Shown: positions 3,800 to 64,000 of the stretch, in pieces
How positions within the stretch are numbered: the stretch's first letter is position 1
How the letters are laid out: every line of letters begins with the position of its first letter
NCBI GenBank assembly: GCA_934754495.1
Contig: CAKVHW010000005.1
Location: 26,533-90,532 of the forward strand
Reading direction: 5' to 3'
Origin: an uncultured Clostridia bacterium
GTDB taxonomy: Bacteria; Bacillota; Clostridia; Christensenellales; UBA1242
Length of the DNA stretch: 64,000 nt
Notes under the pieces: generated by a model
What the model saw: the letters and a program-made list of their open reading frames with translations, nothing else
What the model was told of the DNA's origin: nothing
Database searches by the model: none
Made by a program: the position numbers and the translations under genes

Positions 3800-3926
3800 A
3801 AAACCTCCATATAACTTTACTATATTCAGGTTTCTGTTTTTTGGTGTATTAAGGACATTGGTGGGTGGTAATAAAAAACCATGCCTAAAAAAGTAATATA
3901 ATATATCTATTTATTTAAAAAATGAC

Positions 3927-3955
3927 TTGAAAAATAGGCACTATAATGCTATAAT
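3927..3955 (+). promoter_or_regulatory. Sigma-A type promoter upstream of the small membrane ORF and valS
   Basis: TTGAAA - 17 nt - TGcTATAAT (extended -10). Confidence 0.55.
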
Positions 3956-3989
3956 ATGTTTAATTTTAAAAAGGTTAAGGATAAGTATT

Positions 3990-4235
3990 ATGTTAAATTT
4001 TTTATTAAACACCAATTCAGAAAGCTTTAAAATGTTTTTCACAATGCCACAAGTTTGGATTGCTTTAATTCTATGCATTATTGGTGCTTCATTAATTATT
4101 TTGGCACGTCGTATCACAAGAGTTGCTAAAAAGACCAATTACATTGCTGACAATGACAAAACAATGATTACAATTAAATGTATAGGTGTTGTTTGCTTAT
4201 TTGTTTGTATAATCATTTTGGTATTCATTAAATAA
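3990..4235 (+). CDS. Small two-TM membrane protein, unknown function
   Basis: 81 aa from the ATG at 3990. The tracked start at 3927 is the TTG of the -35 box. Two hydrophobic helices. Confidence 0.5.
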   Translation: MLNFLLNTNSESFKMFFTMPQVWIALILCIIGASLIILARRITRVAKKTNYIADNDKTMITIKCIGVVCLFVCIIILVFIK

Positions 4236-4258
4236 ATAAGTTAGGAGCATTTTTTAAA

Positions 4259-6871: not shown

Positions 6872-6872
6872 T

Positions 6873-6908
6873 AAAAAAAGACGACCTATTTAAGGTTGTC
6901 TTTTTTTA
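6873..6908. terminator. Bidirectional rho-independent terminator between convergent genes
   Basis: agacgacc/ggttgtct 8-bp stem with an A-run 5' and a T-run 3'. Confidence 0.8.
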
Positions 6909-7352
6909 TTATTTAACACGACTTGCTGTTTCTTGGTAAAGATTGTCATTAAGACATGCAAACCCAATATTTTCTGCATTAAAACCATACTTTGTAAGGT
7001 TTACATATGCTTCAATAATTGTTTTGTTTTCATCATCATATGGTGTAGAAATAATTTTGCTTTCACCATACTTTACAGGTATAATTTCTGTAACTTCACC
7101 ATAATAGTCTAGTACTTTTTTTCTGTCAATAAATGTTGCAATTCCGTCTTTAAATAAATTTTTGCTAGTAGGGTTTAGGGTGTGAAGTTTGCGACTATAC
7201 ACAATTGGATTAACGTCAGCAACAGTATAGTTTTCTGGTACAAACATAACTGTTTTGCCATTTTCTATAATGTTAGTTAATGTTTTATTGTAATTTCTCT
7301 TGCCTGTAATGTAGTTTTTAAATGCGTTTACTGGGTTGGATTCTTTTCTCAT
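6909..7352 (-). CDS. Hypothetical protein (147 aa)
   Basis: Clean ORF with an AAGGAA RBS, last gene of a four-gene minus-strand cluster; no motif recognised. Confidence 0.65.
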   Translation of the reverse strand: MRKESNPVNAFKNYITGKRNYNKTLTNIIENGKTVMFVPENYTVADVNPIVYSRKLHTLNPTSKNLFKDGIATFIDRKKVLDYYGEVTEIIPVKYGESKIISTPYDDENKTIIEAYVNLTKYGFNAENIGFACLNDNLYQETASRVK

Positions 7353-26045: not shown

Positions 26046-26642
26046 ATGCTAGATTACGAGAAAAAATATTATGATGCTGGTTATACATTGGTTGCAGGAA
26101 TTGACGAAGCGGGTCGTGGACCGCTTGCAGGCCCTGTGTGTGTTGCAATTGTCATTATGCCACAGGATAATATTATTGAAGAAATAAATGATAGTAAAAA
26201 ACTATCTGAGAAAAAACGTGAGATGTTGTACAATAAAATCATTGAAACCGCTATAAGCTATGATATAGAACTTATTGACGAAAAGATGATTGATAAAGTT
26301 AATATCTTAAATGCAACAAAACTTGGCATGTTAAAATGTATTGAAAACATTCCAGTTAAGCCCGAACTTGTGCTAATAGATGCGGTTAAAATTGATGGAG
26401 AAGTGCCAACTGTTAGCATTGTTCATGGCGATGCATTAAGTTATAATATTGCAGCGGCAAGTATTTTAGCAAAAGTAACACGTGATAGATTAATGGTAGA
26501 ACTTGACGCAAAATATCCAAATTACAACTTTAAAAAGCATAAGGGTTATGGTACAAAAGAACATATTGAAGCCCTAAAAAAGTACGGGAAATGTGATATT
26601 CATCGTGATAGTTTTATAGGTCATTTTGTAGGTGAAAAGTGA
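26046..26642 (+). CDS. rnhB: Ribonuclease HII
   Basis: GIDEAGRGPLAGPV catalytic motif, DSKKLS, and an ASILAKV block typical of RNase HII. Start moved to MLDYEK. Confidence 0.93.
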   Translation: MLDYEKKYYDAGYTLVAGIDEAGRGPLAGPVCVAIVIMPQDNIIEEINDSKKLSEKKREMLYNKIIETAISYDIELIDEKMIDKVNILNATKLGMLKCIENIPVKPELVLIDAVKIDGEVPTVSIVHGDALSYNIAAASILAKVTRDRLMVELDAKYPNYNFKKHKGYGTKEHIEALKKYGKCDIHRDSFIGHFVGEK

Positions 26643-49975: not shown

Positions 49976-50113
49976 ATGAACGACTGTACACTTATGGGTT
50001 TTGCGGTTGGTTTGTTAGCCGGTGCATTAATTGTTGCTAATAATAAAAAAGCACAAGAGATTGTTGAAAAAGGTAAAAAGGCTGTAAAACAACAAATTGA
50101 AAAAATGAAATAG
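49976..50113 (+). CDS. Small membrane-anchored protein (45 aa), not in the ORF track
   Basis: MNDCTLMGFAVGLLAGALIVANNKKAQEIVEKGKKAVKQQIEKMK. Strong AAGGAGG RBS 7 nt upstream. One TM helix plus a basic amphipathic tail (YtxH-like appearance). Confidence 0.6.
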   Translation: MNDCTLMGFAVGLLAGALIVANNKKAQEIVEKGKKAVKQQIEKMK

Positions 50114-50162
50114 TTTTTGTTTTTCCTTTGTAAAAAACTGGAAATTGTGCTAATATATAATT

Positions 50163-50606
50163 ATGGATAATTTAGCACACAGAATTATGGGGCTGGACTA
50201 TGGCGATGTGCGAATTGGTGTTGCACTTAGTGACACGACACACCTTATTGCCACAGGGTTTGAAACTTACACCCGAAAAACCAACAAACTTGACATTGCC
50301 CATTTAAAACAAATAATAGCAGAAAATGCGGTGAATAAGGTTGTTTTTGGGCTTCCGCTTAATATGGATGGAAGTGCTGGGATTAGGGTAGTAAAAACCA
50401 AAAGTTTTGCCGAGAAATTAAAGGCAGAATGTGATGTTGAAATTGACTTTTATGACGAACGACTAAGTTCTGTTGATGCCGAAGAAATTTTGGTTAATGC
50501 AGGGGTTAGACGTGACAAACGTAAAGAAGTTATCGACAAGCTTGCTGCCACATTAATTTTGCAAGGTTATCTAGATAAAGAAAGGGAGAATAATAAAAAT
50601 GGCTAA
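50163..50606 (+). CDS. ruvX: Holliday-junction resolvase-like / pre-16S rRNA nuclease RuvX (YqgF)
   Basis: GLDYGDVRIGVALSD N-terminal motif, FGLPLNMDGS, DERLSS. An alternative start lies at the second Met (50187). Confidence 0.9.
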   Translation: MDNLAHRIMGLDYGDVRIGVALSDTTHLIATGFETYTRKTNKLDIAHLKQIIAENAVNKVVFGLPLNMDGSAGIRVVKTKSFAEKLKAECDVEIDFYDERLSSVDAEEILVNAGVRRDKRKEVIDKLAATLILQGYLDKERENNKNG

Positions 50607-50916
50607 AAAACAATTATCACCAATTGATATGTTATTAGATGAAAACAATAAAGACAATATTGTGCTTTATGATGACAAAAATAAAGAAGTTGAATTCGAA
50701 CAAATCGCAATTATTCCACTAGATGGAAAAATGTATGCTATTCTTCGTCCACTTGGTGGCGATGACCCAATGCCAGAAGACGAAGCTTTGGTTTTTGTAA
50801 TTGACGAAGTTGATGATGAAGACGTTCTTCTACTAGAAGAAAACGAAGAAATTGAAGACAAAGTATTTGATAAATACTACGAACTTCTTAAACAACAAGG
50901 CTACGATGTAGACTAA
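50599..50916 (+). CDS. DUF1292 protein (YrzB-like)
   Basis: Acidic 105-aa protein with the pattern L.D..g.EveFE.i..i...gk.Y..L.P, in the conserved position after ruvX. Confidence 0.8.
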   Translation: MAKKQLSPIDMLLDENNKDNIVLYDDKNKEVEFEQIAIIPLDGKMYAILRPLGGDDPMPEDEALVFVIDEVDDEDVLLLEENEEIEDKVFDKYYELLKQQGYDVD

Positions 50917-51006
50917 CATTTTGTTGAATTTAATTAACACCTTAAAATAAAGCAAATTTTAAAAAAATTTACTTTAAAATAGGGTGTTGTTTTTTGTAAA
51001 AAACAC

Positions 51007-51035
51007 TTGTAATTTGGCTAAGTTTATGGTAAAAT
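51007..51035 (+). promoter_or_regulatory. Sigma-A promoter of rpsB-tsf
   Basis: TTGTAA - 17 nt - TGgTAAAAT. Confidence 0.55.
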
Positions 51036-51148
51036 GCTTGTGTTTCAAAAATTACACACCTAGTTCATATTTTAAATGCGGTTGCCTATATGGTTGCATT
51101 AAGAGTTTTAAAGGGCTGGGGAGGATTAAAAACAAGGAGGAAAAATAA

Positions 51149-51934
51149 ATGTCAGTAATTTCAATGAAGCAGTTACTAGAAGCTGGTGTTCACTTTGGAC
51201 ATCAAGCAAGAAAATGGGATCCTAAAATGGCTCCATATATTTTCACTTCAAGAAACGATATTCACATTATCAATCTTGAGGACACCGTAGTTTTGCTAGA
51301 CAAAGCATACGATTATATTAAGGAAATGGCTAGTCAAGGCAAAACAATTCTTTTTGTAGGTACTAAAAAACAAGCTCAAAAGGCTATTGAAGACGAAGCA
51401 AAAAGATGCGGAATGTACTACATCAATTCTAGATGGCTTGGTGGTACTCTTACCAACTTTAAGACTATCAGAACTAGAGTAGAACGTCTTAACAAACTTA
51501 ACAATATGGAAAAGGTTGGCGAATTTAACCTTCTACCTAAAAAGGAAGTTATCAAACTTAAAGCAGAACGTGATAAGCTAGAAAAGAACCTTGGCGGTAT
51601 TAAAGACATGGTTAAACTTCCAGATGTAATGTTTATTGTTGATACTAAGAAAGAACACATTGCAGTAGACGAAGCTAAAAAACTTAACATTCCTATTGTT
51701 GCACTTCTAGACACAAACTGTGACCCAGAACCAATTGATTACATCATTCCTGGAAACGACGATGCTATTCGTGCCGTTCAACTAATTGCTGCTGCTATTG
51801 CAAATGCAGTTATTGAAGCAAAAGAAGGCGTTGCTCCATCTCTAAACACTGAAGAGAACCCAGAAGCAGAAAAAAACATTGCTGAAATTGTTAACAAAGA
51901 AACAGCAGAAGCTGAACAAAAAGTAGAAGAATAA
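51149..51934 (+). CDS. rpsB: 30S ribosomal protein S2
   Basis: [23 protein letters not shown]-terminus, [18 protein letters not shown] motifs. Confidence 0.97.
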
Positions 51935-51952
51935 TTTTAGGGGGAATATAAA

Positions 51953-52597
51953 ATGTATTCAACAGAAGATATTGTAAAATTAAGAAAAAGAACCAATGCT
52001 GGTGTTATGGATTGTAAAAATGCATTGGTAGAATGTGGTGGCGACCTTGACAAGGCTACTGAATGGCTAAGAGAAAAGGGTATCGCTAAAGCAGCAAAAA
52101 AAGCAGATAGAATTGCAGCTGAAGGTCTTGTATACTCTTACATTCATATGGGTGGCAAGATTGGTGTACTTGTAGAAGTTAACTGCGAAACAGACTTCGT
52201 TGCACGTAGTGAAAATTTTGTAAACCTTTGCAAAGACATAGCTATGCACATTGCTGCCGCTAATCCACTATACCTAGACCGTACTACTGTTCCTACAGAT
52301 GCTCTAGAACACGAAAAAGAAATTTTAAAGGCTCAAGCACTTAACGAAGGCAAACCTGCAAACATTATTGAAAAAATGATGGAAGGAAGAGTTAAAAAGT
52401 ACTATGGCGAAGTTTGTTTGCTAGAACAACCTTTTGTTAAAGATCCATCTAAAACTATCACCGATGTTATCAACGAAGCTATCTTGGTTATTGGTGAAAA
52501 AATCACTGTTAGAAGATTTACTCGTTATGAAATGGGTGAAGGTCTTGAAAAACGTAGCGACAACTTTGTTGAAGAAGTTATGGCTCAAACAAAATAA
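51953..52597 (+). CDS. tsf: Elongation factor Ts (short form)
   Basis: [21 protein letters not shown]-like N-terminus, [31 protein letters not shown]. Confidence 0.96.
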
Positions 52598-52613
52598 TTT
52601 TGTTTAATACAAT

Positions 52614-52647
52614 AAAAAACACTCTACAAAATGTAGAGTGTTTTTTG
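52614..52647 (+). terminator. Rho-independent terminator after tsf
   Basis: Perfect 9-bp stem cactctaca/tgtagagtg plus a T6 run. Confidence 0.9.
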
Positions 52648-52653
52648 TGTTTT

Positions 52654-52806
52654 CACACTTTTTATCATCAAACCGTATTTTTAGTTTTTGCTTTTGTGGG
52701 TTCTGGGGTGCTGTCGCACTTTTTATCAAAACTTACTTTATTTATAGTATTGGAAAATCTAAATCTTTGAGTCGTCGCACTTTTTATCAATAACCCGTAC
52801 TTTTAG
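52654..52806 (+). repeat. Three 31-33 bp direct repeats with 61-bp periodicity (28-30 bp unique spacers)
   Basis: CACACTTTTTATCATCAAACCGTATTTTTAG (52654), CGCACTTTTTATCAAAACTTACTTTATTTATAG (52715), CGCACTTTTTATCAATAACCCGTACTTTTAG (52776). Confidence 0.7.
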
Positions 52807-52832
52807 TAATTCCCATTACAAATTCAAAAAAA

Positions 52833-52998
52833 TGAATAATGTTAAGAGTGGAAATTAGAGAAAAAATATTGAATGTGAAAAGATTACAAGTTGCAATACT
52901 CCATAATGTCACTATTCACTTTTAAAAATTTATTATTGTATTGAGTCCATATATTTAAGTTTTATTATATATTTATATATAATATATTAATATTTAAG
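52833..52998 (-). repeat. Module B: two inverted copies of the module-A motif plus a (TA)-rich block
   Basis: The reverse complement of 52866-52882 is cttttcacattcaatat, against ctttccacattcaacat at 44048-44064 (15 of 17 identical). The reverse complement of 52838-52856 is aatttccactcttaacatt. TA-rich ttattatatatttatatataatatattaatat. Confidence 0.55.
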
Positions 52999-53027
52999 TT
53001 GCAAATTTGTTTTAATTTTAGTAAAAT
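52999..53027 (+). promoter_or_regulatory. Candidate sigma-A promoter of frr-uppS-cdsA-rseP
   Basis: TTGCAA - 17 nt - TAAAAT. Confidence 0.5.
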
Positions 53028-53057
53028 TACAATAATAATGTATTAAGGTGGTAAGTT

Positions 53058-53627
53058 ATGTATTCAGACGAAATTCAAATGTATTTAGATGAATTAAAAA
53101 CAAATTTAGATAAGGCTATTAATCACTTGCAAGACGAACTTTTGCAAATTAGAGCAGGTAGAGCAAATCCAAAGATTATAGAACGTATAATGGTTGATTA
53201 TTATGGTACTATGACACCTATTAACCAAATGGCAACAATTAGTGTTCCAGAGGCTCGTATGGTTGTTGTTAGTGCTTGGGATATTAGCATGATTAAGGCT
53301 ATGAGCAAGGCAATTGAAGCTGCTAATCTTGGTCTTAACCCTAGTGATGATGGCCGTACAATTAGGCTTGTTTTTCCACAACTAACTGAAGAAAGAAGAA
53401 AAGAACTTTGTAAGGAAGTAAGCAAACTTAGCGAACAATCAAAAGTTACTTGCCGTAACGAACGTCGTGACGCAATTGAAGCATTCCGTACAATGAAGAA
53501 AAACAGCGAAATTACCGAAGATGAACTTAGTAATTTGGAAAAAGAAGTTCAAAAAACTTTAGATAATTATATTGCTAAAATTGACACAATGACTAGTAAT
53601 AAAGAAAAAGAAATTATGGAGATTTAA
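53058..53627 (+). CDS. frr: Ribosome recycling factor
   Basis: LQIRAGRANP, ISVPEARMVVVSAWD, NLGLNPSDDG..IRL.FP.LTEERRKEL motifs. Confidence 0.96.
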   Translation: MYSDEIQMYLDELKTNLDKAINHLQDELLQIRAGRANPKIIERIMVDYYGTMTPINQMATISVPEARMVVVSAWDISMIKAMSKAIEAANLGLNPSDDGRTIRLVFPQLTEERRKELCKEVSKLSEQSKVTCRNERRDAIEAFRTMKKNSEITEDELSNLEKEVQKTLDNYIAKIDTMTSNKEKEIMEI

Positions 53628-53644
53628 TTCCAGCCGGAGATTAT

Positions 53645-54403
53645 ATGAAATTAGACAGTACAAAAATTCCTACTCATGTTGGAATTATTATAGACGGCAA
53701 TGGCAGATGGGCAAAGCATAGGGGACTTACTCGTTCTGATGGTCACATTGCTGGTTTTAACAACCTAAAAAAACGTGTATTTGATGCGTTTGACTTGGGG
53801 GTAAAGATACTTAGTATTTATGCTTTTTCTACTGAAAATTGGAATAGACCACAACCAGAACTTGACTGCTTGTTTGAATTGTTTGGCAAGATGTTTAAAG
53901 ACGACATTGACAAACTTAACGAAAAAGGCGTTAAAGTGCAATTTATGGGCGACTACACAAAATTTCCTGAAAAAGTAGTTGAAAATTGCGAAAACTTACT
54001 AGAAAAAACCAAAAACAACGACAAGTTTATTTTAAATCTTGGCGTAAACTATGGCGGAAAAGATGAACTTGTAAGGGGTATTAACCAAATGATTGCTGAT
54101 GGTAAAACACAAATTAGCAAGGAAGATGTTGATAATAGCCTGTACACAGCGAATTTGCCACCGTTAGACTTTTTAATTCGTACAAGTGGTGAACAACGTA
54201 TTAGCAATTTTATGCTTTGGCAAATTGCTTACACTGAGTTTTATTTCCCAAAAACACACTGGCCAGCATTTACTAAACATGACTTAGTTAAGGCTTTAAA
54301 AGTATATCAAAAACGTCATCGCCGTTTTGGTGCTATAAAAGAAGACGTTAAGAATTACGATTCAACAAATTATGAAAAGATAGATGAAAAGGACGAGAAA
54401 TAA
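53645..54403 (+). CDS. uppS: Isoprenyl transferase (undecaprenyl-diphosphate synthase)
   Basis: HVGIIIDGNGRWA, YAFSTENWNRP, IRTSGEQRISNFMLWQ motifs. Confidence 0.96.
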   Translation: MKLDSTKIPTHVGIIIDGNGRWAKHRGLTRSDGHIAGFNNLKKRVFDAFDLGVKILSIYAFSTENWNRPQPELDCLFELFGKMFKDDIDKLNEKGVKVQFMGDYTKFPEKVVENCENLLEKTKNNDKFILNLGVNYGGKDELVRGINQMIADGKTQISKEDVDNSLYTANLPPLDFLIRTSGEQRISNFMLWQIAYTEFYFPKTHWPAFTKHDLVKALKVYQKRHRRFGAIKEDVKNYDSTNYEKIDEKDEK

Positions 54404-55362
54404 TGAAAAAAAGATTGTTGACGAGTGCTGTTATTGTGGTATTACTTGCACTTGCCTTTGCTAGCAGATTGCTAACACTTTATGTGTTTGACCTAGTTAT
54501 GCTAGTAATGGCAGTTATGGGTGTTGTAGAAGTTGCACGAGTTTTGGAAAGAATGGGCAAGCACACGAATATACTAATTGTGGGCACATTCCCAGCAGTA
54601 CTTTACCTAATAACAATTTTTATTGTTGAAAAAGGGCTTAGTTGGCACTACCTTGTAATGGGGATTTTCATTGCAATGATTGTGTATTTTTTGCTTATTT
54701 TCATACTTACTTTGTGTATGAAAAAAACTACTCAAGCCGAACTTACTAAATATGAAATTACCGACACAAAACCTGCTAGATATGCGCTTGAAAAAGCTAC
54801 ATATTCACTTGGTGTTTTTGTGTACCCAGCATTACTTTTCTTGACATTAATTTTCTTAAACCACTTTGGACAACTTCATTTTGTACATTCCGTTTTGGGT
54901 GCTGAAAGCAAAGAGTTTGTGTTCTTTATCTTACTATTTGTATTCACAGTTACTATTTGTACTGATAGTATGGCAATGGTCACTGGTTCGCTATTAAAAG
55001 GACCAAAGCTATGTCCATTAATTAGCCCAAACAAAACTATTAGCGGTGCTATTGGTGGACTAGTTGGTGGTGTTGGAAGTGGAATGATTTTATACTCAAT
55101 TTACAACACTTCTAATGCTTTTAAATCACAATTTGCTGTAATTAATGGTAAGTTTTGGGTTATTATTATAATAGCCTTATTAGGGTCTATAATTAGTCAA
55201 ATTGGCGACCTTATTGCAAGTGCTCTAAAGCGTAGAGCAAGAGTTAAGGATTATGGAACAATTTTTCCAGGTCACGGCGGAGTTATGGATAGAGTAGATG
55301 GACTTATCTTCAACTCATTATTCTGCTTTATTGCCTTTACATTGCTAGTTGCTATAGCGTAA
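54403..55362 (+). CDS. cdsA: Phosphatidate cytidylyltransferase
   Basis: Polytopic protein with the CTP-transferase signature SALKRRARVKDYGTIFPGHGGVMDRVDG. Confidence 0.93.
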   Translation: MKKRLLTSAVIVVLLALAFASRLLTLYVFDLVMLVMAVMGVVEVARVLERMGKHTNILIVGTFPAVLYLITIFIVEKGLSWHYLVMGIFIAMIVYFLLIFILTLCMKKTTQAELTKYEITDTKPARYALEKATYSLGVFVYPALLFLTLIFLNHFGQLHFVHSVLGAESKEFVFFILLFVFTVTICTDSMAMVTGSLLKGPKLCPLISPNKTISGAIGGLVGGVGSGMILYSIYNTSNAFKSQFAVINGKFWVIIIIALLGSIISQIGDLIASALKRRARVKDYGTIFPGHGGVMDRVDGLIFNSLFCFIAFTLLVAIA

Positions 55363-55375
55363 AAGGAGAATTAAT

Positions 55376-56488
55376 TTGTTATCTTATCTATGTTCGGTTG
55401 GCTCGTTTTTTAAAAGCGTGCTATACATCATTTTAGCCTTGCTTGTGTTAATGATAATGATTGTTATTCATGAATTTGGTCATTACACTGCAGGCAAAAT
55501 TTTTAAATTTAAAATAAACGAATTTTCAATCGGTTTTGGTAAAGCATTGTTTAAAAAAACCAAGAAAAATGGCGAGATTTTTGCTATTAGACTTATTCCA
55601 CTTGGTGGGTATTGTGCTTTTGAAGGTGAAGACGAAGACGGCAATGTTAGCCCTGATGCCTTTAATAATAAGCCTTGGTGGCAACGTATTATTGTTCTTT
55701 TCTGTGGTGCATTTTTCAACTTTATTTCTGCAATAATTTTCTCGGTTGTTTTGCTTTGCGTGATTGGTGCTGGGTTATCAAAAATTGAAACAGTTACGGC
55801 GCTTCCATCACAGTATGTCGACTCTGCTTACACATTACAACAAGGCGATGTTGTGAAAAAAGTTAATGGTAAAACATGTACTTTCTTAAACGGCGGATTT
55901 AATGGAATGGTGGGTGCAATTCAAGATGATACAACAGTTATTACACTTACTGTTCAACGTGTTATTGATGGCAAAAAACAAGACGTTGAAGTAAAACTTA
56001 CAAAGCACGCATATGATGTTGAAGGAAACATTGTTGAGGGTGAAGGCACTGTAAACGATTACAAAATTGGCGTTACAACAAGTTGGTATAACTACAACTT
56101 TGGTCAGGCTTTATTAAAGGCAATTCCTTTCTGTTTTTCGATAGCAGGTGAGTGCTTGGCTATACTTGGCAAATTATTAATAGGCAAATATAGTTTACGC
56201 AATCTTGGTGGACCAATAACTACAATTACTACAATTGCATCGGCATCATCACAAAGTCTTCTAAATCTATTACTATTATTCCCTTTAATAGCTATAAATT
56301 TGGCGGTATTTAACTTGCTTCCAATTCCAGCACTTGATGGTGCAAGAATGGTATTTGTTTTAATAGAGGCAATAAGGAAAAAACCTATTAATCGTGACGT
56401 TGAAGCTAAAATTCATGGTATTGGACTTATCGTTTTATTTAGTTTTGTTATTGTTGTAGATTTATTACAATTATTTGTTTTTAGGTGA
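55376..56488 (+). CDS. rseP: RIP (site-2) zinc metalloprotease RseP/RasP
   Basis: HEFGHY zinc motif in TM1, central PDZ-like region, C-terminal NLLPIPALDG motif; TTG start after AAGGAG. Confidence 0.92.
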   Translation: MLSYLCSVGSFFKSVLYIILALLVLMIMIVIHEFGHYTAGKIFKFKINEFSIGFGKALFKKTKKNGEIFAIRLIPLGGYCAFEGEDEDGNVSPDAFNNKPWWQRIIVLFCGAFFNFISAIIFSVVLLCVIGAGLSKIETVTALPSQYVDSAYTLQQGDVVKKVNGKTCTFLNGGFNGMVGAIQDDTTVITLTVQRVIDGKKQDVEVKLTKHAYDVEGNIVEGEGTVNDYKIGVTTSWYNYNFGQALLKAIPFCFSIAGECLAILGKLLIGKYSLRNLGGPITTITTIASASSQSLLNLLLLFPLIAINLAVFNLLPIPALDGARMVFVLIEAIRKKPINRDVEAKIHGIGLIVLFSFVIVVDLLQLFVFR

Positions 56489-58053
56489 TTATGGATAAAT
56501 TATTAGAATACATTAATAAAAACTTTAACAACACTTACTTTAAATTGGTAAGTGTTGTTTACGATAAGGCTACAAAAGTGGCCACATTTAAACTTATTTA
56601 TGATGGCGAATTAAAAGAATCGGATAGGCAAAAAATTAAAAACCTTATTGCCGAACTATATGAGCACAAATTCAAGGTTGACGTAAAACTAAAACGCTCG
56701 TACCTAGATGAAGATGCAATTCAAGAATATTGCTACAGAAATGTGCTTGAAAATTGTAAAAGTATATTGGGTTTTTCTAAGGGTGATGTTAGTGTCAAAC
56801 TTGAAGAAAGAGTGGCTACTATAAATATTAAAATTGCAAGTCAATTTGTAGAATTTTTACAAAATAAAAACTACGAAAAACAACTTGTAAAAGACCTTGA
56901 CAACAACTTTTTTGGCGAGTTTTATGTGGCTATTGCCGAAAAAGAAGCCGTGCAAGTAGATGATGTAATTAAAGAAAAAGAAGAAGAACTTGATGCTCTT
57001 ATTTCGTCCACAGTTTTTAAGAAAGAAAAAACAATTGAAGTGGAACTTGGAGAAGAGTTGTTTGGTGGTGAAATAAGCAATATTGCCACCGAAATTGCCG
57101 ACTTAAAAAGTGCACGACAAGGGGTTGTTGCATGTGGTAAATTACAATATTTTTTGAAAAAATCTTTCACATCAAAACGTAAAGACGAACAAGGAAATGC
57201 CATAGAAAAAGAGTTTTTCACATTTACCCTTAGTGATGGCACGGGCAAACTTCATTGTGTGTGTTTTCCAAACAAACTTACGTATGAAAAATTGGCTTCG
57301 CTAGAAGAAAAAGACGGCACAGAACTGGTTGTTTTTGGTGACTTAGAAGAATACAACGAAAGGCTAAGTTTTAAAGTGAAATCAATCTCATTTTGTAAAA
57401 TTCCAGAGAAAAAGATGGAAGAAGAAACAGTGGAAGAAAAGGGTGTAAATGAAAACTACATATTTGTGAAACCAGAGCCATATGTGAATATGAGCCAAGA
57501 CAACTTTTTGGCAAAAGCATATGAGCCAAACGAGTTTTTAAAACAAAACGATGTTGTTGTATTTGACTTTGAAACAACAGGGCTTGAATTTAATAAAAAT
57601 GAAATTATTGAAATTGGTGCTGTAAAACTTGTTAACGGCGAATTGGCTGAAACATTTAGTTGTTTTGTGAAGCCGAAACAAGCCATTCCTGATGAAATTA
57701 CTCAAATTACTCATATCACAAATGATATGGTTAAGGACGCATATCCAATAGATAAAATTATTCCTGATTTTTATAAGTTTTGTTATGGCTGTGTAATTAT
57801 GGCTTATAATATTGATTTTGACTACAAGTTTTTGGATTTTGCAGCAAGAAAATTGGGGTATAATTTTAACAACCGCCAAATTGATGCATTATATTTAGCA
57901 CGACTAAATGTTGCTGGTGCTAAAAACTTCAAGTTGGGCAGTATCTGTGCAAAACTTGGTGTTTCGTTAGAAGGTGCTCATAGGGCAGTAAATGATGCTG
58001 TTGCGACAGCAGAAGTTGTGAAACTTATTAGCTATAATGTTTCACCAAAATAG
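56485..58053 (+). CDS. PolC-like N-terminal domain + OB fold + DEDDh 3'-5' exonuclease, lacking PHP and polymerase core
   Basis: 522 aa. Exo I FDFETTG (D361, E363), Exo II AYNIDFDYKFL, Exo III HRAVNDAVATAEV (H499, D504). OB-like segment VVACGKL..FTFTLSDGTGKLHCVCF..VVFGDLEEY..LSFKV. Sits between rseP and rimP, where polC normally lies. GTG overlaps the rseP stop; an alternative ATG is at 56491. Confidence 0.8.
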   Translation: MIMDKLLEYINKNFNNTYFKLVSVVYDKATKVATFKLIYDGELKESDRQKIKNLIAELYEHKFKVDVKLKRSYLDEDAIQEYCYRNVLENCKSILGFSKGDVSVKLEERVATINIKIASQFVEFLQNKNYEKQLVKDLDNNFFGEFYVAIAEKEAVQVDDVIKEKEEELDALISSTVFKKEKTIEVELGEELFGGEISNIATEIADLKSARQGVVACGKLQYFLKKSFTSKRKDEQGNAIEKEFFTFTLSDGTGKLHCVCFPNKLTYEKLASLEEKDGTELVVFGDLEEYNERLSFKVKSISFCKIPEKKMEEETVEEKGVNENYIFVKPEPYVNMSQDNFLAKAYEPNEFLKQNDVVVFDFETTGLEFNKNEIIEIGAVKLVNGELAETFSCFVKPKQAIPDEITQITHITNDMVKDAYPIDKIIPDFYKFCYGCVIMAYNIDFDYKFLDFAARKLGYNFNNRQIDALYLARLNVAGAKNFKLGSICAKLGVSLEGAHRAVNDAVATAEVVKLISYNVSPK

Positions 58054-58164
58054 TGGCGAAAACTATTGATTTTATAGTTTTTTTATGGTACACTATTAAT
58101 GCTTTAATAGAATTACTAAGTGGGTTTTAATAAATCCACTTTAATTTTTGTAAAGGGAGTTTTT

Positions 58165-58635
58165 ATGAACGGCAAAAAAGTTATTTCAAGTTGTAGACCA
58201 CAAATAGAAAAAATTGTGGCAGAACTTGGCTATGTTTTGGTGGATATTGAGTACACTAAAAAAGTAAATGGAATGGTGCTAGAACTATTTATAGATTCAC
58301 CTAATGGCATCACCCTAAACGATTGCGAAAAGGTGAGCAGGGCTCTTGATAAGCCACTTGACGAAATAAACCCTACAAATGATGAGCCATATTGCTTAAA
58401 TGTTTCGTCACTTGGTCTTGATAGACCACTTACCACAGAATATCAATTCAATAAATATCGTGGTAAAGAAGTTGATGTTAAGTTCTACAAACCAGTTATG
58501 CCTTATAATAAAAAGCTTCTTACGGGAATTTTAGAAAATTGGGACGACAACACTGTTACAATATTGGTTGAGGGCAAACCAGCAATACTACAAAAATCTG
58601 ACATTGCACAAATTGTGCCAGTTATTAATTTTTAA
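58165..58635 (+). CDS. rimP: Ribosome maturation factor RimP
   Basis: Start at MNGKK after an AGGGAG RBS; LVDIEY...L.LFID.P.GI.L.DCE..S motif; immediately upstream of nusA. Confidence 0.9.
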   Translation: MNGKKVISSCRPQIEKIVAELGYVLVDIEYTKKVNGMVLELFIDSPNGITLNDCEKVSRALDKPLDEINPTNDEPYCLNVSSLGLDRPLTTEYQFNKYRGKEVDVKFYKPVMPYNKKLLTGILENWDDNTVTILVEGKPAILQKSDIAQIVPVINF

Positions 58636-58652
58636 AGGAGAAAAATAAAAAA

Positions 58653-59780
58653 ATGACAAGTAAAGATTTTTTTCAAGCATTAGACGATTTACAAGAACAA
58701 AAAGGTATTAATAAGGATTATTTTGTTGAAGCACTAGAAAGTGCTCTTACAAGTGCCTACAAGAAAAACTTTGGCGAAGCAAAAAGTGCATTTGTAAAAC
58801 TAGACCCAGAAAAGAACAGCATTAAGGTTTATTCATACAAAACGGTTGTAGATGAAATTACTGACCCAGATAAAGAAATTTTGTTGGGTGATGCAAAACT
58901 TATTAAGAAGTCATATAAAGTTGGCGATAGAGTAATCCAAGAAGAAATGCCTAAGGATTTTGGTAGAATTGCAGCACAAACAGCAAAACAAGTTGTTATG
59001 CAAAGAATTAAAGATGCCGAACGTAATCGTGTTATGGAAGAAGTTAACACAAAACAAGACGAACTTCTTACAGTAATTGTACGCCGTATTGAAGGTGACA
59101 ATGTTTACTGCGATATGGGCATTACACAAGTTGAAGGTGTTCTTGGTGGAAAAGACAAAATTCCAGGTGAAAAGTACACGCCTAATATGCGTTTGAAAGT
59201 GCTAGTTAGAAATATTAAGGAAAGTTATAATATGCCTTATGTTCAACTTACTCGTACAAGTGCAAACTTTGTAAAAAAACTTTTCGAACTAGAAGTTCCT
59301 GAAGTTCAAAACGAAGAAGTTAAGATTCACAACATCGTAAGAGAAGCCGGCTATCGTACTAAGATTGCTGTGTATAGTGACAATAAGACACTAGATGTTG
59401 TTGGTGCATGCGTAGGTAATAAGGGTATGAGAGTTAATGCAATTGTTAACGAACTTAATGGCGAAAAAATTGACATTGTGCCATATAGTGAAAACCCAGC
59501 AGAATTTATTGCTTCTGCATTAAGCCCTGCAACAGTACTTCATGTAGAAGTAAATCAAAATGAAAAAAAATCTTTGGCTGTTGTTCCTGATGACAAACTT
59601 TCACTTGCAATTGGCAAAGCTGGTCAAAACGTTAGACTTGCAGCAAGACTTACTGGCTGGAAAATTGACGTTAAGGCAAAGAGTGTTGTACCTAGCCTAG
59701 ACCTTGGTGAAAACTATAGCGATGAAAACAATTATGACAACTTGTTTGAAGGCGAAGATGCTTTTGGAGAATTAGAATAG
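58653..59780 (+). CDS. nusA: Transcription termination/antitermination factor NusA
   Basis: N-terminal RNAP-binding domain, S1 domain, two KH domains (GACVGNKGMRVN, AIGKAGQNVRLAARLTGWKIDV). Confidence 0.97.
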   Translation: MTSKDFFQALDDLQEQKGINKDYFVEALESALTSAYKKNFGEAKSAFVKLDPEKNSIKVYSYKTVVDEITDPDKEILLGDAKLIKKSYKVGDRVIQEEMPKDFGRIAAQTAKQVVMQRIKDAERNRVMEEVNTKQDELLTVIVRRIEGDNVYCDMGITQVEGVLGGKDKIPGEKYTPNMRLKVLVRNIKESYNMPYVQLTRTSANFVKKLFELEVPEVQNEEVKIHNIVREAGYRTKIAVYSDNKTLDVVGACVGNKGMRVNAIVNELNGEKIDIVPYSENPAEFIASALSPATVLHVEVNQNEKKSLAVVPDDKLSLAIGKAGQNVRLAARLTGWKIDVKAKSVVPSLDLGENYSDENNYDNLFEGEDAFGELE

Positions 59781-59781
59781 A

Positions 59782-60033
59782 ATGAATAAAAAAGTTGTTC
59801 CTTTAAGGCTATGTTTGGCATGCCGAACTCAAAAGCCTAAAAAAGAAATGATAAGGGTTGTAAAAACCGAGAATGGATATGTGGTTGACCCTACAGGAAA
59901 ACTAAACGGCCGTGGAGCTTATGTGTGCAATAATAAAGAGTGCATTGAAAAGTGTGTAAAAACACATGGCTTTAATAAGTCGTTTAAGGGAAATGTTCCA
60001 GATAGTGTGTATAGCGAAATTAAAGGAGAATAA
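59782..60033 (+). CDS. ylxR: YlxR/RnpM (DUF448) RNA-binding protein
   Basis: PLRLCLACR...KKEMIRVV...D.TGK.NGRGAYVC motif; conserved position after nusA. Confidence 0.9.
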   Translation: MNKKVVPLRLCLACRTQKPKKEMIRVVKTENGYVVDPTGKLNGRGAYVCNNKECIEKCVKTHGFNKSFKGNVPDSVYSEIKGE

Positions 60034-60336
60034 ATGACTAGCAAATTAGAAACATATTTGGGTTTTAGCATTAAAAGTGGAAAAGTTGTGTTTGGCTTTG
60101 ACGCATTAAGTGAAACCACAAAAAATGTAAAACTTGTAGTTGTTTGTTCTACTATTAATGCTAAGGTGGAACAAAAACTTATAAAACTTTGTGAATATAA
60201 AAAATGGGAAATGGTTAAGACCAATGCAGTTTTGGGTGACTTAATTCACCGCAACAACTGTAAGGTTATGGGGTTGTTGGATAAAAACTTGGCTAACGAA
60301 ATACTTAAAAGTAGCGAAGTTAATATAATAAAATAA
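60034..60336 (+). CDS. ylxQ: L7Ae/L30e-family RNA-binding protein YlxQ
   Basis: 100 aa, LGFSIKSGKVVFG motif, conserved position before infB. Confidence 0.85.
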   Translation: MTSKLETYLGFSIKSGKVVFGFDALSETTKNVKLVVVCSTINAKVEQKLIKLCEYKKWEMVKTNAVLGDLIHRNNCKVMGLLDKNLANEILKSSEVNIIK

Positions 60337-60350
60337 GGGAGTGTCGTAAT

Positions 60351-62783
60351 TTGGATAATAGAAACGCACAACAAAACAAAAACACAGTATCATTTGAAAA
60401 ACTTAAAAAACTTAGCCAAATGCTTAATGGAAGCGAGCTAGGTTCTTTTGCCACAGGCATTAGCAAGGCGAAAAAGGCGCTTGATACATACTGCAAATCT
60501 TTAAAGGAAAAAGAAGTTACATCAAAGTCTGCACCTACACAACCTGCAACTACTGCACCAGCGCCTGTTGCTACCAACAAAGTGGAAGAAAAACCTAATA
60601 TTGTGTTCACTCCTAAAAACAATGTTAGACCACAATTTAACCGCAATCAACCTGATTCCCGTGGAAATAATAATAACCCAAGGTTTAATAGAGATGGAAG
60701 TAGGCCACCATTTAACAGAAACAACAGCGACCGTCCTATGGGACAACGTCCAGCTGGTGGTAGAGTAGCATCAAATGGTCAACAAGGTCAAAACCGCCCA
60801 TTTAAGCCATTTGTTAAGGAAGAAAAAGAAGTTTTGTTTGTAAAACCAGAACGTGAGTTTGGTAATAAAAACAAAACAAAACAAGTTAATGACGAGAAAA
60901 AAGAACTTTCTAAAAAAGCAAAAATTAGAATGGGTTATGTTGAAGTAGAAGACTACGAAAACGAAGACGGAAGTGCACGTATTCGTTCCAGCAAACCAAA
61001 AAAACAAAAAGAAGTTGTTGTTCCAGAAAAAACTGAAATTACAAATGCAGTTATTACAGGTGATACACTTACTGTTAAGGATTTATCAGAAAAAATTGGT
61101 AAGCCAGTTGTAGAACTTATTAAGAAGTTTATGATGCTTGGAATGATGCTTAACATCAACAGTAGCATTGACTTTGCAACAGCCGAACTTGTTGCTTCTG
61201 AGTTTGGTGTAACACTAGAACAAAAAATTGAGAAAAATTACGAAGAACAATTGGAAGAAATGTTTGAACAAAGAGCACAAGAAGCCAATGAAAAGCGTCC
61301 ACCAATTGTTACTGTTATGGGGCACGTTGACCATGGTAAAACTTCACTTCTTGATGCAATTAAAAAGACCAATGTAACTGCTGGCGAAGCAGGTGGAATT
61401 ACCCAACATATTGGTGCTTACTCAATTGAAGTAAATAAGAATAAAATCACCTTTATTGATACTCCTGGTCACGAAGCATTTACCGCTATGCGTGCTAGAG
61501 GTGCTAAGGTTACTGATATTGCAATCCTAGTTGTTGCTGCCGATGACGGCATTATGCCACAAACAGTTGAAGCTATTAATCATATTAAGGCTGCCAAAGT
61601 TCCTATGATTGTGGCTATAAACAAAATGGATAAACCTGGTGCTAACCCTGAAAGAGTAAAACAACAACTTACTGAATATGATGTTGTTCCTGAAGAATGG
61701 GGTGGTGACACAATTTGTGTGCCAATTTCTGCTATTAATGGCACAGGTATTGATAAATTACTTGATACAATACTACTTGTTGCTGAAGTTAGCGAACTTA
61801 AAGCAAACCCTAAAAACCCTGCAAGCGGTTATGTACTTGAAAGTCGTGTTGATAAGGGACGTGGTGTAGAAGTTACCGTTGTTGTTAGAGATGGCACACT
61901 TAAAGTTGGTGACTTTGTAATTAGTGGTACTTCTTATGGTAAGGTTAAGGCCATGAACGACTACAAGGGTAACTCGGTTAAGGCTGCTGGACCTAGTATG
62001 GCTGTTTCACTTCTTGGGTTTAATAATGTCCCAGAAGCAGGCGAAAAAGTATACGTTGTAGACGAAAAAATGGGTAAAAACATTGTTGACGAACGTGTTG
62101 CAAGACAACAAGTTGAAATGATTACTAAGACAAACAATGTAACATTGGAAGAATTCTTAAAACAATCTGCTGACAATGAAGTTAAAACGCTTAACCTTAT
62201 TGTTAAAGCCGATGTTAAAGGTTCGGCTGAAGCATTAAAAGCAAGCTTAGAGAAAATTCATAATGACGAAGTTAATGTTAAGGTTATTCATTCTACAGCC
62301 GGTGCTGTAAATGAAAGTGACGTGCTTCTTGCTCAAACAAGTGGTGCAATCATTATTGCTTTCAACGTTAGACCAGATAGCAAGGCAAAAGTTCTTGCAG
62401 AAAGAAATGGTGTTGACATTAAAGCATATCGTGTTATTTATGACGCAATTGATGATGTTACTAAGGCTATTAATGGTATGCTTACTCCTAAATTTGAAGA
62501 AAAAATACTTGGTCATGCCGAAGTTAGACATATCTTTAAAATTAGCAGTGTTGGTACAATTGCTGGTAGTTATGTTCAAGACGGAACAGTTAATAGGGGC
62601 AATAAGATTAGGCTTCTAAGAAGCAATGTTGTTATTGCCGAAACAGAAATTGAGAGTTTACAACAGGGCAAAGACGATGCAAAAACTGTTAAGGCTGGCT
62701 TTGAATGTGGTATCAAACTTAAAAACTATTCCGACATTAAAGATGGCGACATTATAGAAGCTTACGAAGTTCAACAAATTTAA
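60351..62783 (+). CDS. infB: Translation initiation factor IF-2
   Basis: TTG start; low-complexity N-terminal region; G domain [22 protein letters not shown]-terminal domains. Confidence 0.97.
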
Positions 62784-62794
62784 AAGGAAAATAT

Positions 62795-63148
62795 ATGAAT
62801 AATAGAATTTTAAAGATTAATTCGGAAATTCAAAAATATATTAGCGAAATCATTCACTCCGAGCTAAAAAATCCTAATATTAATGGCATTATTAGTGTTG
62901 TTAAGGTTGATACAACTAATGACCTTAGCATAAGCAAAGTTTATTTGCGTATATTTAATGCCACTGATACACAAGAAGTTTTCAATCAAATTTTGCACTC
63001 TGCTGGTTTTATAAGAAAATCACTTTGTTCAAAACTAGATATTAGAAAAGTGCCATTCCTAGAGTTTTATCTAGACGACAGTATTGAGTACTTTGAAAAG
63101 ATTGAAGGGCTTATTGATAAAATTAACGATGAAAGAAGGGAAAAATGA
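62795..63148 (+). CDS. rbfA: Ribosome-binding factor A
   Basis: R..KINSEIQKYISEII....KNP.....ISV..V....DLS..KVY motif. Confidence 0.92.
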   Translation: MNNRILKINSEIQKYISEIIHSELKNPNINGIISVVKVDTTNDLSISKVYLRIFNATDTQEVFNQILHSAGFIRKSLCSKLDIRKVPFLEFYLDDSIEYFEKIEGLIDKINDERREK

Positions 63149-64000
63149 TTTTTGAAAAAAATGTATTAAACTTAATACACAATTCTAGCGTGGTTGCAAT
63201 TGTGACACACGTTAGACCAGATGCCGACTGTTTGGGGTCGGCTTCTGCTTTAAAAGGGGCTTTGTTGCAACTTGGAAAGAAAGCTGATATTTTCTGTGAT
63301 GGTGAAATATCGGAAAACTACTTGGTTTTGCCATATATTGATAAAATTAACCAAGCAGAATTTAGCGATTATGACACAATAATTGCTGTTGATTGTGGTG
63401 ATATCAATCGCACTGGGAAATATGCTGACTTATTTAAAACTCATGAAAATACACTTTTAATAGACCATCACATGACCGATGATTGGGCAAAAGATATTTT
63501 TACAAAATACACTGTTAAAGAGAATGTTTCAAGCACCGCAGAAATTTTGTTTCATTTGTTTAAAGAATTGGGAGTGGAATTTAATGCTAATAATTGTATG
63601 GGGTTGTATGCAGGAATTTTGACTGACACTGGTGGTTTTTTGCACTCCAACACAACACCTGAAACACATGTTGTTGCTGGTGAAATACTAAAACATGTCC
63701 CTAATATGACCCAACTAAACTATGTTTTAATACAAAAACGTACAGTTGGACAACTAAATGTGTTTAAAGCAGCACTTAACAACTTAAGATATATTTGTGG
63801 CGGAAAAGTTGCAATTACATACCTTACTGAAAGAGATTTTAAACAAAATCATATTTTAAATAGTGAAAACTATGGCATTGTAGATATGTGTGTTAATATT
63901 GATACAGTTGACATTGGCATTTTGATTAGTGAAAAAAGTCCTAATTTATATGCATGTAGTTTACGTGGAAAAAATAAAGATGTTTCAATTATTGCTAAAT
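63145..64000 (+). CDS. nrnA: DHH-family phosphoesterase, NrnA-like oligoribonuclease/pAp phosphatase (3' end off window)
   Basis: Open frame runs to the window edge and is absent from the ORF track. VTHVRPDADCLGSA, AVDCGD, LIDHH, TDTGGF motifs. The ATG overlaps the rbfA stop (ATGA). Confidence 0.88.
   Translation, partial: MIFEKNVLNLIHNSSVVAIVTHVRPDADCLGSASALKGALLQLGKKADIFCDGEISENYLVLPYIDKINQAEFSDYDTIIAVDCGDINRTGKYADLFKTHENTLLIDHHMTDDWAKDIFTKYTVKENVSSTAEILFHLFKELGVEFNANNCMGLYAGILTDTGGFLHSNTTPETHVVAGEILKHVPNMTQLNYVLIQKRTVGQLNVFKAALNNLRYICGGKVAITYLTERDFKQNHILNSENYGIVDMCVNIDTVDIGILISEKSPNLYACSLRGKNKDVSIIAK

Follow-up and report, generated by a model that had tools for sequence, protein, structure and literature searches.

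Which protein stands at the place of polC in an uncultured Clostridia bacterium whose gene between rseP and rimP encodes little more than 500 residues? PolC counts as the essential replicase that defines Firmicutes, and the antibiotic ibezapolstat is directed against it (PMC12592400). The question is raised by a stretch of 64,000 nucleotides of contig CAKVHW010000005.1 (assembly GCA_934754495.1, forward-strand positions 26,533 to 90,532), which was analysed as a whole and is called the window below. The ORF finder placed an open reading frame (ORF) of 522 aa with a GTG start at 56485..58053 on the + strand, and its flanking genes were identified as rseP and rimP by domain match, in agreement with a preliminary description of this DNA that had reported a gene of only 522 codons between them and had quoted six peptide strings, all of which were found in the translation. 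The polymerase-less PolC-like protein encoded at 56491..58053 (+) is referred to as X for short. Judged from domain, profile and structure-model comparisons, X is a PolC derivative that has kept the N-terminal domain (NTD), the OB fold and the exonuclease and has lost both PHP halves and the whole polymerase. With a probability of roughly 60%, we read X as a PolC-derived, clamp-tethered 3'-5' DNA exonuclease that would work in trans.

The true start of X is most likely the ATG at 56491, which would give a protein of 520 aa, because its homologs begin with MDKLL and P0001, which is 99% identical to it, has this length. Residue numbers nevertheless follow the 522-aa ORF (GTG 56485) and not the 520-aa protein. 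The parts of X are as follows.

56491..58053, + strand: the X gene, encoding the polymerase-less PolC-like protein (ORF finder; starts of homologs)
56491..56943 (aa 3-153), + strand: N-terminal domain made of two alpha/beta lobes (AlphaFold2 (AF2), pLDDT 85-92; homolog of the PolC NTD by hhalign)
56956..57009 (aa 158-175), + strand: connecting helix (AF2, lower confidence)
57031..57399 (aa 183-305), + strand: OB fold (AF2 strands; Pfam; hhalign; Foldseek)
57400..57531 (aa 306-349), + strand: linker of about 45 aa, standing where PolC has its N-terminal PHP half of about 85 aa
57496..57510 (aa 338-342), + strand: QDNFL, a putative pentapeptide of the beta-clamp-binding type (family pattern Q-x-[NDS]-[LFMI]-[FL])
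57538..58029 (aa 352-515), + strand: DEDDh 3'-5' exonuclease (Pfam RNase_T; TIGR00573; PDB 2p1j)

The PolC sequences used for comparison came from nine real genes on plasmid-labelled chromosome pieces and from 120 Clostridial PolCs found with Monoglobus as bait; 49 real PolCs made up the hidden Markov model (HMM) and profile, and PolC residues 1-640 entered the full comparison. The full X family was aligned with this part of PolC by hhalign at a probability of 100% (E 1.1e-70) over 511 colinear columns. X aligned with PolC residues ~1-320 and ~410-590, the sole large gap falling exactly at the N-terminal PHP half, and the coverage stopped at PolC residue ~585, with nothing aligned past the exonuclease. 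The PolC HMM scored 38.8 bits with the N-terminal part of X and 180.9 bits with its exonuclease, and in all six frames of the 64-kb window it matched the X ORF alone. Moreover, when the whole AF2 model of X (48 family members in the alignment, mean pLDDT 87.8) was searched with Foldseek, the top match was the PolC structure 9qpc (392 columns, 4.9e-18). Pfam recognized an OB family (tRNA_anti-codon) at aa 242-301 (30 bits, cutoff 27), which was also present in 18 of 20 X family members, RNase_T (PF00929) at aa 358-511 (3e-35) and Rv2179c-like (PF16473; 31 bits, cutoff 27). It recognized neither PHP (PF02811) nor any polymerase family (PF07733/PF17657) in X and no family over aa 1-240, and only a few residues follow the last exonuclease helix of X. 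Thus, each of the three parts matches its PolC counterpart in the same order by hhalign and HMM, and Pfam, hhalign and the PolC HMM agree that X has neither of the PHP halves and no polymerase core, both as first described.

Similarity of the N-terminal region to PolC, for which a profile-profile comparison had been suggested, was found as well. The hhalign probability between X aa 1-310 and PolC 1-328 was 98.8% (E 1e-16, 293 colinear columns). For the OB fold alone against the PolC OB it was 98.1% (E 8e-14, 108 columns), and for the NTD alone (X 4-175 against PolC 5-174) it was 89% (P 2.4e-6). The controls for the NTD, which were a reversed PolC alignment, 30 column-shuffled versions and crosses between NTD and OB, all stayed at or below 0.5% probability. 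Single-sequence scans of aa 1-345 in 20 members returned mainly OB folds: Pfam gave OB families and, once, PF11490 (PolC NII; E 0.014), and NCBIfam gave OB matches to XseA, RecG, YhaM and TiaS, with PolC in 2 of the 20 members. Similarly, a Foldseek search of the PDB with the N-terminal model of X found generic OB folds of RPA, Stn1 and aminoacyl-tRNA synthetases, with PolC 3f2b at rank 17. In the AF2 model, lobe 1 (aa 3-71) has the order a-b-b-a-b and lobe 2 (aa 76-153) the order a-b-b-a-a-b, which is the type II KH topology. These two KH-like lobes agree with the prediction published for the PolC NTD (PMC3919608), a flexible domain that is not resolved in cryo-electron microscopy (cryo-EM) structures and is absent from solved structures (PMC12592400).

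The exonuclease of X was also closest to that of PolC. The best NCBIfam match of X was PolC (2.7e-51), and its best PDB sequence match was 2p1j, the PolC exonuclease of T. maritima (1.8e-28). The identity of the X exonuclease averaged 44% to PolCs and was 38% to stand-alone exonucleases of the PRK06807 type and 36% to Bacilli PolCs, and the closest relatives of the exonuclease encoded in the window were Clostridial PolCs, with identities of up to 46%. In a weakly supported neighbour-joining tree of exonucleases, X formed a clade (68% bootstrap) among the PolCs, with the stand-alone enzymes further out. The linker before the exonuclease contains a conserved segment, Y325-x-x-V-K-P-E-P-Y. Segment 321-330 was modelled confidently only with the exonuclease present and is therefore predicted to pack against the exonuclease domain.

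X occupies the position of polC. The gene lies directly after rseP or rseP-ispG in 24 of 25 full-length independent loci, including those on scaffolds of 0.9-1.17 Mb, and in twelve species-representative metagenome-assembled genomes (MAGs) the order cdsA-rseP-X-(rimP)-nusA-ylxR-ylxQ-infB-rbfA is kept. Distant members on scaffolds of 0.3-1.17 Mb are found in the order rpsB-tsf-pyrH-frr-uppS-cdsA-dxr-rseP-ispG-X-rimP-nusA, and one lineage has frr-uppS-cdsA-rseP-X-comM-dprA-topA. For polC itself, frr-uppS-cdsA-rseP stands upstream in 29 of 43 metagenomic loci. The annotated records of B. velezensis and S. aureus read cdsA-(dxr)-rseP-proS-polC-rimP-nusA, that of E. gallinarum reads rseP-proS-polC and that of Monoglobus ispG-polC. 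X thus stands between rseP/ispG and rimP-nusA as polC does in other Firmicutes, which bears out the placement of X in the canonical polC slot.

Several plasmid-labelled PLSDB records carry a chromosomal rseP-proS/ispG-polC-rimP-nusA arrangement: NZ_OY725740.1, OY725841.1, NZ_CP154629.1 (2.63 Mb), NZ_CP084075.1 (2.11 Mb), CP051994.1, NZ_CP083716.1 and NZ_CP116511.1. Evidently, these supposed plasmids are parts of chromosomes or entire chromosomes. In addition, full-length PolC is encoded on large secondary replicons, namely Butyrivibrio proteoclasticus pCY186 (L026, 4642-9114), where it adjoins dnaB, a DnaA/Hda-like gene and a replication initiator gene, and a Clostridium butyricum megaplasmid (L027, 4795-9213).

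Searches of the protein database recovered more than 120 full-length relatives of X, which were 505-528 aa long and down to 41% identical, and a second search with distant members as queries added about 115 more, which measured 500-589 aa and reached down to ~27% identity. When 1.84 billion representative proteins were searched with a profile of aa 1-345 alone, 577 clusters (50% identity) were retrieved at E<=1e-3, 443 at E<=1e-10 and 152 at E<=1e-30; the best 150 of the 577 clusters were ~500-577 aa, ~305-325 aa or shorter pieces, with no PolC of ~1,400 aa among them. Some 90%-identity clusters of X hold from hundreds to 2,262 member sequences, so that organisms with X are common in sequenced samples. 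The source organisms were uncultured Clostridia/Clostridiales bacteria, 'uncultured Christensenella sp.' and Candidatus Borkfalkia stercoripullorum (Christensenellales). Across the loci of the twelve species-representative MAGs, the identities ranged from 41 to 76% for X, from 48 to 84% for rseP and from 71 to 91% for nusA. By these comparisons, the X family is a large one under purifying selection in uncultured Christensenellales-type Clostridia.

These data also settle whether X could be an assembly artefact, in which ~2.7 kb of polC had been collapsed or lost, or the stump of a decaying pseudogene. An ORF of about one third of the PolC length lying exactly at the polC locus would be expected from such an event. 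Twenty-five independent assemblies, made in different projects and with different technologies, nevertheless encode the same protein of ~505-577 aa with a clean stop, and the catalytic residues are invariant throughout a set of over 240 distinct sequences whose identities fall as low as ~27%. X has diverged to an extent similar to the housekeeping genes around it, and no PolC-like remnant was found in any frame of the 64-kb window. The conservation of X in 25 independent assemblies together with its invariant active site refutes this explanation, and an assembly collapse, which the preliminary description had wanted excluded, is excluded by the 25 loci and hundreds of clusters. The same loci and clusters answer its call for a survey of related genomes, in which the ~520-aa architecture and its synteny recur.

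The catalytic residues of X (D361, E363, D446, H499 and D504) were invariant in all 239 full-length members, and the nuclease is therefore expected to be active. Between the OB fold and the exonuclease, in a linker that is otherwise only partly conserved around it, lies the pentapeptide QDNFL. Its first residue, Q338, was present in 237 of the 239 members; position 3 was N, D, S or T, position 4 was L, F, M or I, and position 5 was F or L. The variants include QDNLF, QVDLF, QMDLF, QMSLL and QSSLF. The consensus of the bacterial sliding-clamp-binding pentapeptide is QL[SD]LF, and the C-terminal tails of the 49 PolCs contain QLSLF, QISLF, QINLF, QIGFL and the like. It seems, then, that X has either acquired a putative clamp handle of its own or retained one by moving it. 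The preliminary description had considered a clamp-associated exonuclease without noticing this motif; the conserved motif of the clamp-binding type now lends support to that suggestion, and association with the clamp is a function that the motif predicts.

The proposed mechanism follows from the parts. The pentapeptide would take the place of the clamp-binding tail, which went with the polymerase, and dock X on the sliding clamp DnaN (beta). The OB fold would hold single-stranded DNA, the NTD would retain whatever replisome contact the PolC NTD makes, and the exonuclease would clear mismatched or unextendable 3' ends left by a C-family polymerase. The polymerase served would be DnaE1, joined by PolC should the cell encode a copy at another site, and X would act as a proofreading subunit in trans, functionally like epsilon of E. 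coli. Such trans-proofreading is plausible for three reasons. First, the exonuclease of PolC corrects errors of DnaE in trans in B. subtilis, according to work cited in PMC12926913. Second, Clostridial DnaE1, whose PHP site is intact and whose features are those of a self-sufficient replicase, has a conserved epsilon-binding surface (PMC3919608). Third, the modules of PolC are separable in Clostridia.

Several observations weigh against X being a clamp-tethered proofreader. X has no C-terminal polymerase-binding tail like that of epsilon. Position 2 of its motif is mostly D, where L is canonical, and the motif segment has a pLDDT of ~73-75 in AF2 and is thus not clearly disordered. The homology of the NTD rests on the 89% profile-profile probability and on fold topology, and the PolC NTD is in no solved structure. 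Finally, some relatives have no exonuclease at all, so the core function of the family may not be exonucleolytic. These relatives form a subfamily of ~305-325 aa, which consists of the PolC-type NTD and OB fold only, ends cleanly after the OB fold and has neither the clamp-type motif nor the exonuclease. P0184, P0206, P0253 and about a dozen more belong to it. Three of their loci were examined.

L014, 1151-2080: NTD+OB-only gene
L039, 1262-2239: NTD+OB-only gene
L040, 3186-4154: NTD+OB-only gene

In two of these three contexts (P0184 and P0206) the gene lies directly 3' of rseP, and P0253 is encoded elsewhere. The subfamily suggests a reduction series from PolC to X to NTD and OB only, with an N-terminal module that has a function of its own. 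It also raises an alternative, in which X would be mainly a scaffold of the replisome and single-stranded DNA: NTD and OB fold would form the functional unit, contacting the clamp loader, helicase or DnaE and binding single-stranded DNA, and the exonuclease would play an accessory part, given up in some lineages. The retained place after rseP fits this alternative, as do the hundreds of clusters that the N-terminal profile alone retrieves. The exonuclease is, however, the best-conserved part of X, with catalytic residues that are 100% invariant in the full-length members, and the PolC NTD, flexible and not resolved by cryo-EM, has no known function (PMC12592400). We therefore consider the scaffold unlikely.

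Of the names under which X is filed in the sources, namely '3'-5' exoribonuclease', 'exonuclease domain-containing protein', 'hypothetical protein' and 'DNA polymerase III epsilon subunit family exonuclease', the first points to another alternative. X might be a 3'-5' exoribonuclease whose OB fold binds RNA and which takes part in RNA maturation or decay alongside rimP-nusA-infB-rbfA. Its RNase_T and Rv2179c-like matches, the resemblance of its OB fold to those of YhaM, TiaS and XseA in single-sequence scans and its adjacency to genes for ribosome maturation and transcription would all be in keeping with such a role. The exoribonuclease label derives, however, from generic models of the DEDD domain (PF00929, PF16473), and the neighbourhood, being inherited from polC, which has the same place in other Firmicutes, says nothing on RNA. 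Moreover, all three domains of X are closest to those of PolC, a DNA enzyme, and the motif of the clamp-binding type points to DNA replication or repair. An exoribonuclease is, on these grounds, highly unlikely, and a clamp-tethered DNA exonuclease is the reading we retain.

Which polymerase X might serve depends on whether a full PolC persists in the same genomes. Neither a full polC nor dnaE was found in the six frames of the 64-kb window with the PolC HMM and a polymerase-core HMM, and neither was found in 8 kb downstream on contigs of the same species. The surroundings of X, +-10 kb in each of the 25 full-length loci and in three loci of the short variant, likewise yielded neither; all these searches are local and not genome-wide. 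No contig was common to the 120 Clostridial PolC clusters and the X-bearing contigs, again a comparison that is not genome-wide, and among the X and PolC loci compared none had both X and a PolC core. One apparent match of a 6,445-bp contig proved to be a coincidence; L003 is fully taken up by other genes. The metagenome scan, which relied on exonuclease motifs, gave mostly ordinary PolC loci.

The purine asymmetry of the window was considered as a proxy for PolC (PMC4070872) and rejected. ORFs of at least 200 aa in 1-64000 have 86% of their bases on the + strand, the GC skew of that strand is +0.09 to +0.17 and its AT skew is mostly positive. Codon-position analysis showed that these skews come from first-position purines and the 86% one-strand coding, not from replication.

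A further-reaching reading, which we hold tentatively and at a little under even odds, is that Christensenellales-type gut Clostridia have lost the PolC polymerase and replicate on DnaE1 alone, X being what is left of polC in its old place, retained as a proofreader that is detached from the polymerase and tethered to the clamp. X would then be a living intermediate between the combination of PolC and DnaE1 and a system of the DnaE-plus-epsilon type, and the relatives with NTD and OB fold only would represent a further reduction. Some Clostridia have DnaE1 only (PMC3919608), and the Firmicutes with DnaE1 only among the rows listed in the tables of a 2026 survey are the thermophiles Thermodesulfobium, Thermaerobacter and Thermacetogenium (PMC12926913). 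If no full PolC exists elsewhere in the genomes with X, they would belong to mesophilic, host-associated Firmicutes on DnaE1 only, natural insensitivity to PolC inhibitors would be expected, and the clade would offer a handle on the division of labour between PolC and DnaE1 in Clostridia and on the origins of single-polymerase replication, a question posed in PMC3919608. Should these genomes encode a full PolC at another site, X would still be an undescribed exonuclease with a clamp-type motif, isolating the poorly understood PolC NTD in a small and tractable protein.

The immediate surroundings of X in the window are listed next.

55376..56488, + strand: rseP, encoding a site-2 protease (Peptidase_M50, 1.8e-57), the upstream neighbour common to X and polC
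56483..56488, + strand: ribosome-binding site (RBS) AGGTGA of X, read from the sequence and overlapping the rseP stop TGA at 56486-56488
58118..58141, + strand: weak terminator-like hairpin followed by a T-run, in the spacer between X and rimP (pattern match only)
58165..58635, + strand: rimP (RimP match 2.2e-19; ATG at 58165), opening the block rimP-nusA-ylxR-ylxQ-infB-rbfA

The overlap between the RBS and the stop codon suggests that rseP and X are translationally coupled, and the junction between the two genes is just as tight in other X loci. X stops at a TAG (58051-58053), 111 nt before rimP, and the PolC HMM matched nothing else in the window, in keeping with the clean stop, the spacer of ~110 nt and the lack of a frameshifted remainder noted earlier. 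Downstream, rimP is followed by nusA, ylxR, ylxQ, infB and rbfA, and the same block lies 3' of polC in Bacilli. The gene order rpsB-tsf-pyrH-frr-uppS-cdsA-dxr-rseP-proS-polC-rimP-nusA, given as canonical in the preliminary description, holds here for the flanks rseP-X-rimP-nusA and fails for pyrH, dxr and proS/ispG, which are absent from the 64-kb window.

The cluster at 50000-64000 lacks pyrH, dxr, ispG and proS, all of which occur in other X-bearing lineages or in Bacilli (compared with L015, L121, L122, L030 and L032). The lack of any gene of the methylerythritol phosphate (MEP) pathway in the cluster suggests a reduced genome. The gene pyrH lies between tsf and frr in L015, L121 and L122, and it is absent from the corresponding spacer of 460 bp in the window (52598-53057). 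This spacer contains a perfect 15-bp terminator hairpin at 52614-52646, followed by three direct repeats of 21 nt, GTG(T/C)T(T/G)TC(A/G)CACTTTTTATCA, at 52647, 52708 and 52769 with an exact period of 61 nt. Rfam gave no family match within 50-64 kb of the window. Further upstream, at 41329-43875 on the + strand, is an ORF of 848 aa for which Pfam gave no match even at E 0.01. Finally, a contig of the same species (L021) has the spoIIIAA-AF operon at 3814-7226, downstream of rbfA-nrnA-truB, and the organism of the window is, from this operon after the cluster, probably an endospore former.

Our results thus describe a widespread clade of gut Clostridia with a polymerase-less PolC derivative at the polC locus, represented by hundreds of protein clusters. 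In the literature searched, including PMC3919608 and PMC12926913, two surveys of bacterial C-family polymerases, and the rows listed in the tables of the latter, no protein made of NTD, OB fold and exonuclease without a polymerase was described. This and the lack of a Pfam family over aa 1-240 agree with the earlier statement that X could not be placed in a described family. The plasmid collection likewise had no record covering at least 80% of X. The 2026 survey states that truncated sequences were discarded (PMC12926913), and labels such as 'exoribonuclease' and 'hypothetical' hide X from surveys that drop truncated polymerases. For specialists in replication, X should hold considerable interest, which would grow if these genomes turn out to have no PolC.

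Among known proteins, those resembling X in part include the stand-alone Firmicutes exonucleases of the PRK06807 type, which have a related domain (NF005289, 6e-42; 35-44% identity). X scores 144 bits with this family against a cutoff of 335, however, and the PRK06807-type enzymes have no PolC-type NTD or OB fold, branch outside the group of X and PolC in the distance tree and occur in other genomic contexts. The DnaE1 of Bacteroidetes shows another way in which the association of DEDDh proofreader and C-family polymerase has been rearranged: a complete DnaE1 has the exonuclease fused to its N-terminus (PMC3919608), whereas that of X is freed from the polymerase.

Similar to DnaQ/epsilon, X is a stand-alone DEDDh exonuclease of the epsilon family, which matches PDB 1j53/5fku and passes the domain-level model TIGR00573 (101.8 bits, cutoff 71.5), and its proposed role would likewise be proofreading in trans for a polymerase of the DnaE type. 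In epsilon of E. coli a clamp-binding motif, QTSMAF, lies beside the exonuclease domain, as the putative one of X does. Different from epsilon, however, X falls below the cutoffs of the epsilon equivalogs TIGR01406 and PRK05711 (88.6 and 87.1 bits against 222.7 and 196), its exonuclease is closer to those of PolC, and it has 305 aa of PolC-type NTD and OB fold in place of none in epsilon and no counterpart of the C-terminal polymerase-binding segment of epsilon.

The closest comparison is with PolC itself. X shares with PolC the order of NTD, OB fold and DEDDh exonuclease, the genomic position and a motif of the type found in the PolC tail. X differs in its length of 520 aa, compared with ~1420-1450 aa for PolC, in the absence of PHP, the palm/thumb/fingers core and the helix-hairpin-helix motif, and in the position of the clamp-type motif, which is internal, between OB fold and exonuclease, rather than C-terminal. 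X also scores far below the cutoffs of the whole-protein PolC models NF001688 (174.3 bits, cutoff 873) and TIGR01405 (147.9 bits, cutoff 1043). PolC modules can be separated or lost in other lineages too: 6% of PolCs have no exonuclease, all of them from Clostridia or Negativicutes (Timinskas et al., 2014; PMC3919608), and some Clostridia, as mentioned above, use DnaE1 only. The exonuclease-less variants have kept the polymerase, which X has not, and X is the product complementary to them.

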